A stretch of DNA of 20,634 nucleotides from a virus (taxonomy: Duplodnaviria > Heunggongvirae > Uroviricota > Caudoviricetes), in IMG/VR virus record IMGVR_UViG_2740892218_000001, positions 1-20,634 of that record; one strand, given 5' to 3'. The notes beneath the pieces were generated by a model, which saw nothing but the letters and a program-made list of their open reading frames with translations, was not told where the DNA came from and searched no databases. A program made the position numbers and the translations under genes. Positions 356 to 5,773 of this stretch are shown one piece after another. Numbering within the stretch: position 1 is the first letter of the stretch; the number at the start of each line of letters is the position of its first letter.

Positions 356-517
356 TTACGCGCCAATGCGCCCTTCCCTCTTAAAGCTTTCCATTACTCT
401 CTGATAAATCTCAGAGTTAACAGACCGACCATTCTCTTCCGCCACCTTGCGTACCAAATCTAATACTTCTTTAGGCCACCGCAAATTGAACTGCGGCATC
501 TTGCTCATTCCTTTCAT
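356..517 (-). CDS. arc: Arc repressor (ribbon-helix-helix), 53 aa
   Basis: Internal Met of ORF 356..580 gives [53 protein letters not shown], near-identical to P22 Arc as recalled; the 580 start would include the operator, so the internal start is used. Confidence 0.9.
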
Positions 518-607: not shown

Positions 608-859
608 ATGGCTAGAGATGATCCGCACTTTAACTTCCGTATGCCTATGGAAGTAAGGGAGAAATTAAAATTCAGGGCGGAGGCGAATGGGAGATCAATG
701 AACTCCGAGTTGTTACAAATCGTCCAAGATGCTCTATCAAAACCATCGCCTGTGACTGGATATCGCGACGATGCAGAACGACTCGCTGATGAGCAGTCAG
801 AGCTTGTTAAGAAGATGGTGTTTGATACGCTGAAGGATTTGTACAAAAAACCCACCTGA
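608..859 (+). CDS. mnt: Mnt repressor (ribbon-helix-helix), 83 aa
   Basis: MARDDPHFNFRMPMEVREKLKFRAEANGRSMNSELLQIVQDALSKPSPVTGYRDDAERLADEQSELVKKMVFDTLKDLYKKPT, near-identical to P22 Mnt as recalled; divergent from arc. Confidence 0.9.
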   Translation: MARDDPHFNFRMPMEVREKLKFRAEANGRSMNSELLQIVQDALSKPSPVTGYRDDAERLADEQSELVKKMVFDTLKDLYKKPT

Positions 860-869
860 AGGTGGGTTT
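845..869 (-). terminator. Stem-loop (aaacccacc / tgaa / ggtgggttt) with a U6 run on the minus-strand transcript; candidate intrinsic terminator between the convergent mnt and YafO-like genes
   Basis: Perfect 9-bp inverted repeat at 848-856 / 861-869 with a 4-nt loop; on the minus strand it is followed by TTTTTT (845-850). The mnt stop codon sits in the loop. On the plus strand no U-run follows. Confidence 0.45.
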
Positions 870-1317
870 AGTCAAACATAGTGTTTCTAAAGTCTCTCGC
901 ATACCCTGCCAACACTCTCATTCTATTATGATTGTTAGCAGACATGTGAGCTACAGGATGAAAAAGAGCAATCAATGAATACCTGTTCTCATCAAAAAGA
1001 TTTTGTGCATAAACGAGAGCGGTATTGGAAGTTTTATGCCACTGCAACTTTTGCGGTGTGCTGATATCTGTGCCTTTTTTTATTGGCTCAAATTTATTTT
1101 CACCAATTGCTAAATGAAGGTGCATAAGGCCTGCATCTTCAATATCAGGAGGTCGATGATAAGAGGTGTCTCTGCCAAAATAGCTGGGCAACGTTCCCGT
1201 AGACTTGTAGATGATAAAATCATCTACAAGTGTTTGTTTTAAATCAGGAAACTCAACAAAAACCGGGGAGAAAAAATAGTCAAAACTATCCTGATTATAT
1301 TCCACGGTTACTTGCAT
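868..1317 (-). CDS. YafO-family toxin homolog (type II TA toxin family; ribosome-dependent mRNA interferase in E. coli YafO), 149 aa
   Basis: Translation carries the motifs DFIIYKSTGTLPSYFGRD, HLHLA, LVYAQNLFDE...LIALFHP...NNHNRMR, which align with E. coli YafO (DFISYKRDGVLPDIFGRD, HIHLA, LVYCQGAFDE...LIAILKP...DNNQMHK) as recalled from memory. GAGG RBS 5 nt upstream of ATG; AT-rich relative to the structural genes. Confidence 0.65.
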   Translation of the reverse strand: MQVTVEYNQDSFDYFFSPVFVEFPDLKQTLVDDFIIYKSTGTLPSYFGRDTSYHRPPDIEDAGLMHLHLAIGENKFEPIKKGTDISTPQKLQWHKTSNTALVYAQNLFDENRYSLIALFHPVAHMSANNHNRMRVLAGYARDFRNTMFD

Positions 1318-1325
1318 GTTTTACC

Positions 1326-1892
1326 TCAGTGGAAGTTACCAGAGTGAAACACACGAGTCCCGTGCTCAGCAAGCGCACGCAAACCAGCCATATCTACGGA
1401 ACTATCAAAAACAACCGGAACACATGAGCGTTGTTTAATAAGACTATTCAGGTTAGTTACGGCAGATCTAGCATCAGCAACAACGATATAGATATCTCTT
1501 GCGATCTCTTTAAAATCAGCAGAAGCTTCTTTGAATACCGATTTCATTGCCCCTTCAAGTCCTCTCAATTGATGCTCTATCAATCGAGATTTTTCTGGTT
1601 CAATGATAGACAACACATTGTCTACATTTTCATCGGTAGCGTTTGCAAGAACACGATAAGCATATTTCAGCATTCGAGACAATTCTTTAATCGAAGACAC
1701 CGCCTCATGAAGCTCATCATTGGTCCGTTCACTGCTGAGCGAGGATTGATGGTAAGCGTGCTGAACATTATCAGTGACAACCACCTCACAACTGAACGCA
1801 GAAGCTTGCTGTAATAGCAAACCTATTGCGACCCCAGCTTTGGCAGTGTTCAAGCTAAACATTTCATCAATCCCATTAGTCTCATTGCTCAT
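1326..1892 (-). CDS. Hypothetical 188-aa protein, upstream partner of the YafO-like toxin; no family recognised
   Basis: ATG at 1892 (MSNETNGIDEMF...) preceded by AAGGAGG with a 5-nt spacer; the track's TTG start at 1922 would include that RBS. Its TGA stop lies inside the RBS of the downstream toxin gene (8-nt gap), indicating translational coupling. Contains an R-x4-H motif (RALAEH) near the C-terminus. Confidence 0.6.
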   Translation of the reverse strand: MSNETNGIDEMFSLNTAKAGVAIGLLLQQASAFSCEVVVTDNVQHAYHQSSLSSERTNDELHEAVSSIKELSRMLKYAYRVLANATDENVDNVLSIIEPEKSRLIEHQLRGLEGAMKSVFKEASADFKEIARDIYIVVADARSAVTNLNSLIKQRSCVPVVFDSSVDMAGLRALAEHGTRVFHSGNFH

Positions 1893-1918
1893 ACAAACCT
1901 CCTTCTTATCGGAGATTA

Positions 1919-1959
1919 TCAATAGCTATGCATCTATTGAATACACGCTATGCTCAATA
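1919..1959. promoter_or_regulatory. Candidate operator: TCAATAG-N8-CTATTGA inverted repeat centred on ATGCAT, plus a third TCAATA half-site and a GCTATGC direct repeat
   Basis: Read directly: tcaatag (1919-1925) / ctattga (1934-1940), tcaata (1954-1959), gctatgc at 1925-1931 and 1947-1953; sits 27-67 bp upstream of the 188-aa gene start in the divergent intergenic region. Confidence 0.3.
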
Positions 1960-2063
1960 ATTCTACGTCACGTGATATCATTATGCAACCATCGTTCTAT
2001 CACCAGTAGATGATGCCTCTCCATACATCATCTGGTATCCTGCACAAAACTAAGGAGGTTGGT

Positions 2064-2453
2064 GTGAAGCGATTTCTTGCTGCTATGTTCTTATTCATAT
2101 CTTTTGGGGCTACAGCAGAGTGCTGGGTCGTTGGAGATATGCGCGGAATAAGCTATTCAGAACGCAATAATTTCCATCCGGTAGAAGATGGTTTTAGTGG
2201 AACATTCACCATTAAGACAAGCGGTGAAGATGCCAGCATCACATATTCTGGTACAGATGCGGGCGGCATGGCTTACAAAGCATTGTCTAAAAACTCCATC
2301 ATAGGAATCGGCGCGAATGGCGAAACTCAACGCGTTATCGACTCATGGGTAATACATCCTACTGGAACAGTTTTAATGTCAAAAACCATTTCCGGTTATG
2401 GAAATATGGATTCAACCAAAGCTTTTGTTGGAAAAGTAAAAAGAAAATGTTAG
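2064..2453 (+). CDS. Small secreted protein of unknown function (about 129 aa, N-terminal signal peptide), divergent from the toxin operon
   Basis: AGGAGG at 2053-2058 then GTG at 2064; VKRFLAAMFLFISFGATAEC looks like a Sec signal peptide (basic n-region, hydrophobic core, ATA-E cleavage context); mature part is Gly/Ser/Thr-rich with Cys near both ends. The upstream part of track ORF 2010..2453 overlaps the RBS. Confidence 0.55.
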   Translation: MKRFLAAMFLFISFGATAECWVVGDMRGISYSERNNFHPVEDGFSGTFTIKTSGEDASITYSGTDAGGMAYKALSKNSIIGIGANGETQRVIDSWVIHPTGTVLMSKTISGYGNMDSTKAFVGKVKRKC

Positions 2454-2477
2454 CGATTGAATCCAATTTCCCATACG

Positions 2478-4388
2478 TTACTGCTGTGTTGCCTCAGTAG
2501 CAAACAGCGGCCTGACGGCATTTGCAGCGTTACTTAACGCTCTTTCATAGGCTGGTGTTCCAGCTTTAGTGTTTGCCAGACGTAAGAGCGCATTCCTTGC
2601 TGCTTTGGACTCGTACAAGCGCATGATTGCACCGAAACCAGCCTCAAGTCCCAGTGATACACCAAGGGTTGCAGTTGCGCCAATCGTTCTAATCCTGTTA
2701 GCTTGCGATTGTCCTGTCTGTGTTACTACATTTGCGGCGTCCGACCTTGCTGTTTGCTGTAGAACTTCATGAAGAGCATCAAGCTCTTTCATGTGTCTCC
2801 CACTGAATATAGTGTTATAGATCTGACCGTCAGATTGCGACTTCAACTTATTTAACTCGGTAAGAAATTTTGTTGGCGAGTCTCCTGCTTTTTCTGCAAT
2901 CTTGCTGATATAAGCAGCACGCATAGCGTTCTTTCCATCTTCACTAAGAGCAGGCCATATCCTCTTAATATCTGATGGTTTTCTGCTGAATACAACGCTG
3001 TTTATTAGCTCTGGAGTAAACTCTTTTTTAGCTTTGTTGAGATTATTCGCAATCCTTTTATTGAGAACTTTATTGAAGACGTTGGAGTAGTCAGAGTTTG
3101 CTTTGACGTATCTGGCGGCCTCTCCAGCCCCCAAATACCGCGCTGCGTTATTCCTCAAATCTGCCCCCATTGCCCTCTCCACGGCATCAGTTGCGGCTTT
3201 CGCGCTATTAGGAAAAACCATGGCATCTCCCTGAATACTTTCCCTCAAGGCTGACCGCAACTCTCTCAATAGACCAAAATCTATATCTGGTTTAGCAAGT
3301 TCTTCTCGCAAATCGGATAACCCGCGAATCAAATCCTTATTTGCCACTTTCCCAAGCCTGTTAGCTCTGGTAAGTACGTTGTCGATAACCTTAATAGATT
3401 TTGATGTGTCAACAGGTGTGTCTCCCATTTTGGTTGTAATGTCTTCAATAACGCTTCCGGCCGAATCCTTCCTTGACTTCAGAGAACCATACAGATCGTC
3501 AACAACAACTGATGGGCTATATTCACCATATTTCTCAAGCTGTTTTTTAACTAGCTGACTTCTTTTTGCATATTGCTCAGCTCGCTTTGAGCCTGTTCCC
3601 AGCAAAGCCCCCTCAGCATCCTGAGTAAGACCACGAGTGAAAGCATTTTTCGGCGGGATTACATCAGATGTCATTGGTGTCACGCCCATCGATTCTGATG
3701 TGGCAATTTTCTTCGCCACTTCTGGTGCAATATCACCTTTAAAGGCAGTTATTCCACGCTCAAGCCCTTTTGCAACAGTATTAACAGCACCACCTGTTAG
3801 CATGCCAACACCTATATCTGTTGCCAGTTTTCCCGCATCATTTTTCTCACTGTTTGCGGCGAGCGATCCGACTGCGTTTTCTGCCAGAAGACGGGCTGCG
3901 CCTTGAGTAATTCGACCAGCAAGTGTTGGCGCCTGAGTTGAAGCGCCGCCAACGCCAACAGTAGTCAGGTAAGGCAATGCCTCCGCAAACACCCTACCTT
4001 CTGTCGTTTGTGGAGTCAGAGCACCTTGCTGAAGTCCAAACGCCTGCTCTAATCCCTGAGTTGTTACTCGTGGCGCTGGTTGATATGTTCCATCGCCAAT
4101 ACCGAGTTTACCGCCAGCCCATGCCGCCGCGCTTGTTACAGCATCGGCAACTGATGCTGGTATATTTGCCACATTTACACCAGCCTGCACCAGTCCGCGA
4201 CCAGTTTCTTTTACTGCTTCGCCGAGGTCAGACATAAATCCATCTTGCTGTTCTACAGGCTGCTTTTGGTTTTGAGTTGGTTGATTACTGGAGGACAGAA
4301 TCTGAGCGATGCGACGTGCTCCCTCAGTATCACCAGCAGCATCAGCATTCCTTAACGCCGTCATCAATTGTTCACGACTATAAGCCAT
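2478..4388 (-). CDS. Ejection (internal) protein, P22 gp16-like, 636 aa
   Basis: Position (last of the 4-10-26-14-7-20-16 block), size, and TAATG stop/start overlap with the upstream gp20-like gene; Ala/Gly-rich composition typical of ejection proteins. Confidence 0.75.
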   Translation of the reverse strand: MAYSREQLMTALRNADAAGDTEGARRIAQILSSSNQPTQNQKQPVEQQDGFMSDLGEAVKETGRGLVQAGVNVANIPASVADAVTSAAAWAGGKLGIGDGTYQPAPRVTTQGLEQAFGLQQGALTPQTTEGRVFAEALPYLTTVGVGGASTQAPTLAGRITQGAARLLAENAVGSLAANSEKNDAGKLATDIGVGMLTGGAVNTVAKGLERGITAFKGDIAPEVAKKIATSESMGVTPMTSDVIPPKNAFTRGLTQDAEGALLGTGSKRAEQYAKRSQLVKKQLEKYGEYSPSVVVDDLYGSLKSRKDSAGSVIEDITTKMGDTPVDTSKSIKVIDNVLTRANRLGKVANKDLIRGLSDLREELAKPDIDFGLLRELRSALRESIQGDAMVFPNSAKAATDAVERAMGADLRNNAARYLGAGEAARYVKANSDYSNVFNKVLNKRIANNLNKAKKEFTPELINSVVFSRKPSDIKRIWPALSEDGKNAMRAAYISKIAEKAGDSPTKFLTELNKLKSQSDGQIYNTIFSGRHMKELDALHEVLQQTARSDAANVVTQTGQSQANRIRTIGATATLGVSLGLEAGFGAIMRLYESKAARNALLRLANTKAGTPAYERALSNAANAVRPLFATEATQQ

Positions 4389-5773
4389 TACTGCCCTCCG
4401 AGATATTTGCTAATTAATTCGTCATCGGACAATTGCTGTTGAGGTTGGCTATCTCCATAACTTGAGGAAAGAAAACGTTTTGCCGCAGAGTTCAATGATT
4501 CACCCTTCTTAACATCCATCCCCATGATGTTTCGGTTGCGATCAGATTGTCCTGGGCTACCGTTTGCACTCATCCACTCTGACCTAAACTCGTTGAACTT
4601 CGCGTTATTACTTTCCATTTTTGCCATACCCCTTAACCATCGAGCCATGACCATTGGATTATCCGTTTCGCTTGGAATGCCTTTCCTTGCAAACTCAATA
4701 TCCTTATCTGATGCAGGGCCGGGAGGGAGAAGCTTGGTTGCCTGCGCATTGGCTAGTTGGTTGAATCTAATCCGCATATCTCGGAGGTAGTTATCTTGCC
4801 CCGTAAGCTTAGAGAACATATTTTCAGCGTTACCGAACAAACCAGGAGTTGGCTTCTCCTTCTCCAGCGTGTCAGCGAGCGTTGTCATTGAATCGGCAGC
4901 ATTACGACTAGCTGCCGCATCACCTGCTGATTTTTCTATAGCCTTTTCCATGTTCACTGATAATTTTGGCGCTGCATTAATAAGTTCCTCGGCCTTTTTT
5001 TGTGCCTGTTGTACTTCAAAACCGAATTTCTGCTTATCAAGTGCCAGTCTTTCTGCTGCAAGTCCGTGTCCGGTCATTGCAGACTGATAGGAAAGGTTTT
5101 GCCCCCTAATAGCCCTCGCATTCGTCATGTCATTATTGCGAATGGTTTCGTTAATTCTTTGCTGCTCCTGCTGACGACCAATCATCTTATCCTGATAATC
5201 CAGCATTTTATCCGGGCCAACAGCCCCTAGCGTCATAGTAGTCAGCATGTGTGATAGCTGCTCTGGATTCTGGATACCTGTCTGAATCATCCAGTCAGCA
5301 TTCGCCCCCACGCGATTTAACCTGTCCTTGTTGTCAGTAATGAATTTACTGTAGGCTTCCGGTCCCTGAGAAAGAGCGACGTTAGCCCTCATGGCTAAAT
5401 CGCCCATATCGTTGCGTTGCTGCTCATTAAGACCGGAAAACGCCTGTTGTGCCTGCGCAACAAACGCTGGATTTTCCTGGGCAAACTTAAATAGTCCCGA
5501 TGGATCACCAGAAGCCCATGCATCAGCGTGAACCTTATTGAACGCACTAATAGCTTTCTGTTGCTGTTCCTGATTGTAAATATCAGCAACTCCAGCCAGA
5601 CCACGTAACGCGGTCAGACCAACGTTATTTGCACCTGAGCGAGCCAGTTCATTGTTTTCGCGGATCAGACCAAGCGTTGCGTTAATGTCGCTTGCCTTTG
5701 GTGCATTCTCGTTTTGCGTACCGATGCCAGCCAGAAACCCACCAGAATTAATACCCTGTTGCCACGTAGCCAT
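4388..5773 (-). CDS. Ejection protein, P22 gp20-like, 461 aa
   Basis: Position and size match P22 gp20 (about 471 aa); conserved gene order; tight coupling with neighbours. Confidence 0.75.

Follow-up and report, generated by a model that had tools for sequence, protein, structure and literature searches.

The window, by which we mean the whole 20,634-nucleotide (nt) stretch of phage DNA that was analysed (positions 1 to 20,634 of IMG/VR record IMGVR_UViG_2740892218_000001), corresponds to the late/immI end of a P22-like prophage. Our subject is the interval between the mnt gene and gene 16 of this prophage, positions 868-2453, which holds three open reading frames (ORFs). An earlier note on this DNA had suggested that the three genes act together as one system. 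We favour a different reading, to which we give a probability of roughly two in three: the interval consists of two independently assorting accessory modules, namely a toxin-antitoxin (TA)-like pair with a toxin of the YafO family (ORF1 and ORF2, module A), and an exclusion protein of the Hex family (ORF3). The three genes, with lengths in amino acids (aa), are as follows:

868-1317, minus strand: ORF1, YafO-family toxin, 149 aa.
1326-1892, minus strand: ORF2, predicted helical protein, 188 aa, with its ATG start at 1892.
2064-2453, plus strand: ORF3, Hex-family protein, predicted to be secreted, 129 aa, with its GTG start at 2064, convergent with gene 16.

Two of the start codons are corrected here. 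ORF2 begins at ATG 1892, which has an AAGGAGG ribosome-binding site, rather than at 1922, and the resulting 188 aa is the RefSeq length of the protein in E. coli. ORF3 begins at GTG 2064, also with an AAGGAGG ribosome-binding site, rather than at 2010, and the resulting 129 aa matches the annotation of phage Emek.

Two modules that assort independently

Among 5,426 complete E. coli genomes, the ORF2-ORF1 pair occurs in 55, always with both genes, and ORF3 occurs in 147; in none are the two adjacent. E. coli prophages that carry the pair at 97% DNA identity differ in what occupies the sieA slot, the position of the exclusion gene sieA in P22: a gene for a 109-aa protein with three transmembrane (TM) segments in S88, a gene for a 149-aa protein with one TM segment in PU-1, and no gene in 19SZHZ803Rt. 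In Salmonella and metagenomic relatives that carry the pair, the slot is likewise filled by other genes. Conversely, ORF3 is found in other E. coli P22-like prophages whose leftward cargo differs, for example a lipoprotein gene or an HExxH ORF of the P22 type. Furthermore, the pair is found without ORF3 in unrelated prophage types, and members of the Hex family also lie beside cI repressors. The combination seen in the window is apparently a rare product of recombination: an identical ORF2 protein with the order ORF3-ORF2-ORF1-mnt turned up in no more than three contigs, which come from two related runs (e.g., a 20,701-bp contig of Logan DRR017185, locus L028).

Could the three genes nonetheless form one lysogen-expressed defence system, driven from a shared divergent promoter region? 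They are adjacent, they share a low GC content and a 171-bp divergent control region, and their arrangement recurs in the three contigs. However, the pair keeps company with other sieA-slot genes or with none, ORF3 keeps company with other leftward cargo, the pair moves independently among unrelated prophages, and a recombination junction falls exactly at the start codon of ORF3. Given these observations and the complete lack of adjacency among the 5,426 E. coli genomes, we reject a single three-gene system as highly improbable. The earlier note had held that finding the genes unlinked in unrelated contexts would speak against one system, and this is essentially what the distributions of the pair and of ORF3 show. 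Comparative alignment across P22-like prophages does reveal an exchangeable interval, as that note expected, but the interval resolves into two modules, one spanning 842-2068 and the other consisting of ORF3.

Recombination junctions

The mosaic make-up of the region was mapped by blastn of the window against the comparison loci. Positions 1-868 align to P22 with 89% identity, positions 842-2068 match S88/APEC-O1 (CUS-3)-type P22-like prophages of E. coli with 97% identity, and positions 2027-4500 are 98.7% identical to Salmonella phage Emek. These three segments overlap only at a hairpin and at a 34-bp block, which bracket most of module A together with its control region:

848-869: hairpin AAACCCACC-TGAA-GGTGGGTTT, a perfect 10-bp inverted repeat.
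1893-2063: divergent control region of 171 bp between ORF2 and ORF3.
2033-2066, plus strand: 34-bp block, 100% identical by blastn to positions 3918-3951 of the P22-pbi locus (L004).

On the left, homology to the E. coli module begins at 842/843 and homology to P22 extends up to 868; by this alignment, the hairpin doubles as the left recombination junction of module A. On the right, the 34-bp block spans the 5ʹ untranslated region (UTR), the AAGGAGG ribosome-binding site and the GTG start. In P22 it lies directly upstream of sieA and includes the GTG of that gene, and it is kept too in loci L007, L010 and L011. Module A meets the sieA-slot gene at this block. Three short conserved junctions join the modules in all, namely the mnt-terminator hairpin, the 34-bp block for translation initiation of sieA and, next to ORF3, the end of gene 16. 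Seen in this way, the sieA region comprises two sub-slots with defined junctions, which helps in annotating and mining prophages for exclusion and defence genes.

No new principle is involved here, and the arrangement is typical mosaic moron biology. What seems to be undescribed is a partner family for a YafO-type toxin and a diverged Hex homologue in place of sieA. Our literature search found no paper on the ORF2-ORF1 pair, nor on a Hex-like gene in the sieA slot.

Prophages of the CUS-3/S88 type carry a gene for a ClpP-like protease subunit directly after mnt, on the same strand and before the YafO pair (L001 5442-5978, E. coli S88). This gene is absent from the window.

ORF1 and ORF2: a YafO-family toxin and a putative antitoxin

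ORF1 matches the Pfam family PF13957 (YafO_toxin) with an E-value of 3.1e-22 and 79 bits (cut-off 25), over profile positions 3-101 of 101. The family motifs DF..YK..G.LP..FG.D and L.H.HL are kept in ORF1 and across its homologues, and conserved histidines lie in the motifs L-M-H-L-H-L and P-V-A-H. ORF1 belongs to phrog_1651, and an identical E. coli protein is named "YafO family toxin" in RefSeq. The product is predicted to be a ribosome-dependent mRNA endonuclease.

The linkage of ORF1 and ORF2 was checked in 10 homologue lineages, seven of them reached from ORF2 and three from the toxin. The two genes are adjacent in all 10, with spacing that ranges from a 4-nt overlap to a 12-nt gap. Starting from ORF2, a PF13957 gene lies directly downstream in each of the seven lineages, in which ORF2 identity is 66, 63, 54, 34, 26, 22 and 18%; the close lineages are P0003, P0004 and P0006 (54-66%), and the other four are distant (18-34%). 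Starting from the toxin, a 190-aa gene lies 8 nt upstream in each of the three homologues (70, 59 and 56% identity), and these upstream genes score 1e-60 to 1e-67 against the ORF2 profile. The pair was found in at least six distinct prophage contexts, which include the 16/mnt region of P22-like prophages, lambda-like tail genes, the space between Q-type antiterminator and holin genes, a Mu-F/tape-measure region, a myovirus baseplate region, an integrase/DinI region, and a siphovirus immI-like region.

In the last of these contexts (siphovirus-type L026, 2420-5123, and L027), the pair is convergent with a Mnt-like gene of the Arc family, with homologues of arc and ant coming after that gene. 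Joint transfer of the pair and an immI-like region may sometimes occur.

In the window, the TGA stop codon of ORF2 overlaps the GAGG ribosome-binding site of ORF1, from which it follows that the two genes are translationally coupled; the gap between them is 8 nt. Both genes are under strong purifying selection, since the ratio of nonsynonymous to synonymous divergence (dN/dS) is low, at 0.03 for ORF1 and 0.07-0.085 for ORF2, in comparisons with homologues of 54-85% amino-acid identity for which dS is saturated. These values, like the close ORF3 homologues in E. coli and phages, indicate that all three genes are real. The toxin is more constrained than its partner (0.03 versus ~0.08). In TA pairs, the toxin is usually more conserved than the partner.

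ORF2 is less readily placed. Neither single-protein nor family searches found a relative in Pfam, NCBIfam or PDB: ORF2 together with 20 homologues gave no Pfam match at E ≤ 0.01, and neither ORF2 alone nor the 21-member family had a sequence relative in PDB. It belongs to PHROG 8416, a group of unknown function, and an exhaustive profile search recovered only 23 representatives of its family among 1.84 billion. The predicted fold is a helical bundle, and the C-terminus (...LAEHGT..FHSGNFH) is invariant. Judged from these comparisons, ORF2 appears to be unrelated to antitoxins of the YafN/Phd type and to represent an undescribed family.

In the classical layout of type II TA systems, the antitoxin gene comes first and is coupled to the toxin gene. 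The pair shows the generic form of that layout: small, adjacent, co-oriented genes, with the partner first, coupled or overlapping, and paired across contexts. Hence, from its gene organisation, ORF2-ORF1 seems to have the anatomy of a type II TA cassette with a putative antitoxin that is not YafN-like. By analogy with such cassettes, ORF2 is most likely the cognate neutralising partner of ORF1.

Comparison with the E. coli YafN-YafO system (dinB-yafN-yafO-yafP) is instructive on both sides. The two share the toxin family PF13957, a bicistronic layout with the partner first, spacing of a few nucleotides, and a toxin that evolves more slowly than the partner. In contrast, the 188-aa, helical ORF2 has no similarity to YafN/Phd-type antitoxins, ORF1 has an N-terminal extension of ~30 aa and scores under the NCBIfam YafO equivalog cut-off, and the pair has no LexA box and is prophage cargo rather than part of a dinB operon. 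A second point of comparison is provided by the "orphan" YafO-family toxins for which no antitoxin was recognised, described in prophages and R-tailocin clusters of Pseudomonas (PMC10449497, PMC4684702). These resemble the toxins at loci L016 and L017 of our set in being YafO-family cargo among phage structural genes. The published reports name no partner, whereas we define a conserved upstream partner family. YafO toxins annotated as orphans in prophages and tailocin clusters thus now have a conserved partner family, possibly a new type of antitoxin.

Several observations weigh against the pair being a conventional TA module with a defence role. The match of ORF1 to the NCBIfam equivalog PRK09885 (E-value 4e-22, 79 bits) is far under the cut-off of 153, so ORF1 belongs to the YafO family but is no orthologue of the YafO of K-12. 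In ORF2, neither a DNA-binding domain nor any known antitoxin domain is recognisable, and its 188 aa make it a large protein for such a role. The N-terminal region of ORF2 is reminiscent of a signal peptide (residues ~11-35, window 1788-1862), with K-AGVAIGLLL-QQASA followed by F, and distant members of the family have canonical-looking Sec signal peptides, such as MNHFKAMSLATMCGVLTQPAALA followed by EAF. If ORF2 were exported, the classical model of a cytoplasmic antitoxin would fail. Lastly, PADLOC-DB v2 holds no match for ORF1 or ORF3 and gives ORF2 only a weak, coiled-coil-type match to the tail of ZorA (E-value 0.0085). None of the catalogued defence-system models in that database therefore identifies these genes, and a defence role for module A is by analogy only.

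The signal-peptide-like N-terminus raises the alternative that ORF2 is not an antitoxin but an exported or membrane-associated protein, and that the YafO-like protein is controlled in some other way. The toxin may have no intrinsic activity until something triggers it; or ORF2, coupled to the membrane, may sense perturbation of the envelope and then release or activate the toxin. This alternative would account for the canonical signal peptides of the distant members, for the variable, low-confidence linker that follows the N-terminal stretch, and for our failure to find a known antitoxin fold or DNA-binding domain in ORF2. Nonetheless, we consider it unlikely. In close homologues, the N-terminal stretch is invariant in 13 of 17 columns, compared with 41% overall, whereas the true signal peptide of ORF3 varies freely. 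The mean hydrophobicity of the stretch over 19 residues is only ~1.1, and AlphaFold2 (AF2) predicts it as a fairly confident helix, with a predicted local distance difference test (pLDDT) score of 77-83. The invariant antitoxin-first, coupled gene order also argues for the classical layout.

Predicted terminator and control region of the pair

The hairpin at 848-869, which the earlier note had described as shared by mnt and ORF1, is indeed present. The stop codon of mnt lies within its loop, the stop codon of ORF1 overlaps its stem, and a run of six T residues comes next on the minus strand. The hairpin also matches the terminator end of the Rfam model for sroH, a small RNA (sRNA). Its sequence is that of an intrinsic-terminator-like structure for the leftward ORF2-ORF1 operon, and it would be a weaker terminator for mnt. 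A near-identical hairpin (AAACCCACC-TCCC-GGTGGGTTT) follows a YafO-like gene in an unrelated prophage context (L015, ~5000-5020), and hence the terminator seems to be borne by the cassette.

Two candidate promoter elements lie within the divergent control region, which, to judge from the alignments, travels with module A:

1988-1960, minus strand: candidate σ70 promoter for ORF2-ORF1, with a -35 hexamer TTGCAT at 1988-1983, a 17-nt spacer and a -10 hexamer TAGAAT at 1965-1960.
1973-1981, plus strand: candidate extended -10 element TGATATCAT for ORF3.

The positions of the ORF2-ORF1 promoter hexamers are conserved in L007, L010 and L011 despite 34-46% protein divergence. From these elements, transcription would be predicted to begin near 1953 on the minus strand and near 1988 on the plus strand. 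Weighing against our proposal that the pair has its own promoter, a strict consensus promoter scan detected none in 1893-2063, and the promoters there are consensus-level predictions only. The earlier note had given the interval its own divergent promoter region; the 171-bp region and a conserved candidate promoter are there. A search of 1893-2063 for sites resembling a LexA box found none better than chance, and we reject LexA/SOS control of the kind seen in dinB-yafNOP.

ORF1 contains a second inverted repeat, a perfect 13-bp repeat with a 3-nt loop (ACTTGTAGATGAT-AAA-ATCATCTACAAGT, 1203-1231), with a T-rich tract after it on the plus strand. Its TAGATGAT motif recurs at 2007-2014 in the control region, and the window contains four copies, compared with 0.67 expected. 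The palindrome encodes LVDDFIIYK through self-complementary codons. We considered the palindrome, with the TAGATGAT motif that it shares with 2007-2033, as an operator or RNA element, and rejected this idea. The palindrome breaks down through synonymous substitution where homologues share 85% of their amino acids, and distant homologues lack it altogether. Probably, then, it is no conserved element but a by-product, or a feature of one lineage.

ORF3: a Hex-family protein in the sieA slot

Transcription of ORF3 runs towards gene 16, as does that of sieA in P22. Given this common orientation and the identical 34-bp block, the sieA slot is filled here by ORF3, which relies on the translation-initiation region of sieA; like SieA, it is encoded in a P22-like prophage between genes 16 and 9. 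According to the earlier note, the whole interval replaces sieA. This holds for ORF3, which has the position and orientation of sieA, but not for ORF2 and ORF1, which occupy the site of P22 orf59a and a leftward HExxH ORF. The view of the region as a variable hotspot is upheld, in that the interval is exchangeable cargo in the gene 16/mnt accessory region where sieA resides (PMC10883804).

The resemblance to SieA is one of position and not of descent. SieA proteins of types A-C are multi-pass proteins of the inner membrane with the motif FxRYPxEAxxFNK, and sieA is present in only 22 of 66 P22-like phages (PMC10883804). ORF3 has no BLASTP match to P22 SieA, lacks the multi-pass topology and lacks the motif, and we reject it as a SieA homologue. 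The two have in common the slot, the orientation, the 34-bp 5ʹ UTR/ribosome-binding site/GTG start and, by prediction for ORF3, a location in the envelope. They differ in that P22 SieA is an inner-membrane protein with four hydrophobic segments, whereas the single N-terminal hydrophobic segment of ORF3 is a signal peptide and the protein looks like a secreted, soluble beta-barrel; there is no sequence or fold similarity between them.

Other occupants of the slot also have features of envelope proteins. We compared nine different sieA-slot proteins from seven prophages (L001, L003, L007, L010, L011, the window and P22), and TM segments or signal peptides are predicted in eight of them, including P22 SieA and ORF3. 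The others are the 109-aa (three TM) and 149-aa (one TM) proteins, a 297-aa protein with a C-terminal TM segment, a 107-aa protein with an N-terminal TM segment, a 111-aa protein with a signal peptide, and a 75-aa protein with two TM segments. The slot seems to be specialised for envelope proteins.

P22 itself has a leftward ORF of 121 aa with an HExxH motif (...AHECAHMAF...) between orf59a and sieA (L004 3553-3918, P22-pbi, minus strand), and the start of this ORF abuts the annotated P_sieA promoter. It is unannotated in the P22-pbi record and appears as "hypothetical protein" at that place in other records of P22 and related phages. In E. coli strain 165, a protein 98% identical to this one is encoded alongside the Hex-like gene (L020 3105-3470).

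What, then, is ORF3? Its close homologues are those in the 147 E. coli genomes and in three phage records, and a tblastn search of phage genomes found it in Emek and ST-35 at 95-96%. Beyond these, it is 28% identical over its full length to hex, the gene that follows cI in 434 and HK446 (tblastn E-value 8e-6, 2.3 Gb searched). Pairwise BLASTP against 434 Hex gave an E-value of 3e-13 with 28% identity over 129/134 residues. Gene 38 of Sf6, cited in the annotation of Emek, is 98.5% identical to 434 hex.

The predicted signal peptide of ORF3 is cut at ...GATA/ECW, the mature chain has one cysteine at each end, and the predicted structure is an eight-stranded beta-barrel. ORF3 and Hex are alike in having a signal peptide that ends in A-x-A/S, a mature N-terminus ECW and a cysteine near the C-terminus. 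Among ORF3 homologues, the signal region is variable and the mature part is conserved. We infer from these predictions that ORF3 is exported through its Sec signal peptide and forms a small, disulfide-closed beta-barrel in the periplasm.

Hex takes its name from the hex-dependent exclusion of P22 by lambda-imm434 lysogens of Salmonella (Susskind & Botstein 1980, as described in PMC3564112), and it is co-transcribed with the repressor from PRM in lysogens (PMC3564112). ORF3 resembles 434 Hex (and its homologues Sf6 gp38 and those of HK446, HK633 and Sf101) in the full-length homology at 28% identity, the length class, the signal peptide followed by ECW, the C-terminal cysteine, and a position in which prophage expression is expected. 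The differences are that hex lies downstream of a cI-type repressor gene in the PRM operon, whereas ORF3 lies beside ejection-protein genes in the 16/mnt region, with no adjacent repressor gene and with another promoter; that the sequences are highly diverged; and that the P22-exclusion phenotype is on record for 434 Hex alone. Through analogy and this distant homology, an envelope-level exclusion role for ORF3 is suggested.

There are three points against such a role. ORF3 and Hex are only 28% identical, the fold matches of the beta-barrel are generic, and the sole biochemical study of Hex assigns it a cytoplasmic role in blocking RecA-stimulated repressor cleavage (PMC3564112). In vitro, according to that study, the RecA-stimulated cleavage of both the 434 repressor and the P22 repressor was inhibited by a fragment of Hex, and induction was 30-fold higher in hex mutants. 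ORF3, as a Hex homologue, might accordingly be a cytoplasmic "repressor protection" factor of the kind in the published 434 model, and not an exclusion protein. We regard this as quite unlikely. ORF3 and Hex both have N-terminal signal peptides (A-x-A/S, then ECW) and the terminal cysteines that are typical of periplasmic proteins; the slot of ORF3 otherwise holds envelope proteins, including SieA; and the original phenotype of Hex is exclusion of P22. Furthermore, the active fragment of 434 Hex (L019 2429-2905; compare window 2064-2120 in ORF3), sHex, consists of E43-N103 of the 158-aa ORF (PMC3564112). E43 corresponds to E19 of the 134-aa ORF, where it is the first residue past a predicted signal-peptidase site, ANS/ECW. 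That the active fragment begins at the predicted cleavage site suggests that Hex is secreted, at odds with the proposed cytoplasmic action. Our analysis thus connects 434 hex to the sieA slot, and the apparent secretion of the Hex family conflicts with the published mechanism.

Possible functions of the two modules

Our comparisons establish the structure of the genes, their families, the linkage within the pair and its lack of linkage to ORF3, the mosaic junctions and the purifying selection; toxicity, neutralisation, lysogen expression, export and an exclusion or defence phenotype are inferences. We propose that module A is a self-contained bicistronic cassette, consisting of its own promoter, ORF2, ORF1 and the terminator. 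In a lysogen, ORF2 and ORF1 would be made together and ORF2 would keep ORF1 inactive. Loss or titration of ORF2, upon phage infection or prophage loss, would free ORF1 to cleave mRNA, and the outcome could be abortive infection or prophage addiction. Independently, expression of ORF3 would depend on the same promoter and ribosome-binding site as that of sieA in P22, and ORF3 would act at the envelope as a superinfection-exclusion factor against P22-like phages, as an analogue of SieA rather than a homologue.

An alternative explanation is that both modules are selfish or hitch-hiking morons, with the TA pair purely an addiction element and ORF3 functionless. TA modules can persist selfishly, the combination in the window is rare, and no phenotype is known. 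Set against this are the strong purifying selection on ORF1 and ORF2 at saturated synonymous divergence, the recurrence of both ORF3 and the pair in many independent prophages, and the use of the same slot by a proven exclusion gene in P22. We find this explanation improbable.

A more speculative proposal, and one that we hold to be a long shot, combines elements of the above. The ORF2 family could be a new class of toxin partners, tied by their conserved, signal-peptide-like N-termini to the inner membrane or the Sec pathway, that free the YafO-type RNase upon perturbation of the envelope, for example by superinfecting ejection proteins, and the Hex-like barrel could independently block the periplasmic ejection conduit. 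If so, an abortive-infection sensor would be placed beside the ejection-protein genes. It would also follow that 434 Hex is secreted and serves in exclusion, and is not an antagonist of RecA in the cytoplasm.

Flanking genes and composition

The genes that flank the interval are as follows:

Left end of the window: ant', truncated at the window edge.
288-355: sar antisense RNA, a full-length match to Rfam RF00262 with 95.6 bits.
356-517, minus strand: arc.
608-859, plus strand: mnt, the left boundary of the interval, in the immI region, with matches to Pfam Arc (E-value 4e-30) and Repressor_Mnt (E-value 7e-19).
2478-4388, minus strand: gp16-type ejection protein gene, the right boundary, with 98.7% DNA identity to the injection protein gene of phage Emek.
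4388-5773, minus strand: gp20-type ejection gene, with the remaining virion operon beyond it.

The full-length sar match at 288-355 indicates that the left edge of the window holds a complete arc-sar-ant arrangement. In L028, the identical gp16-type gene has a recorded match to PF26808 (Phage_P22_gp16). The earlier note had described the flanking core genes as P22-like, and the mnt matches, arc, the sar RNA and the gp16- and gp20-type genes agree with that description. It had also called the composition of the interval atypical: the GC content of 40.8%, compared with 48.3% for the window, is the minimum among all 1586-bp windows.

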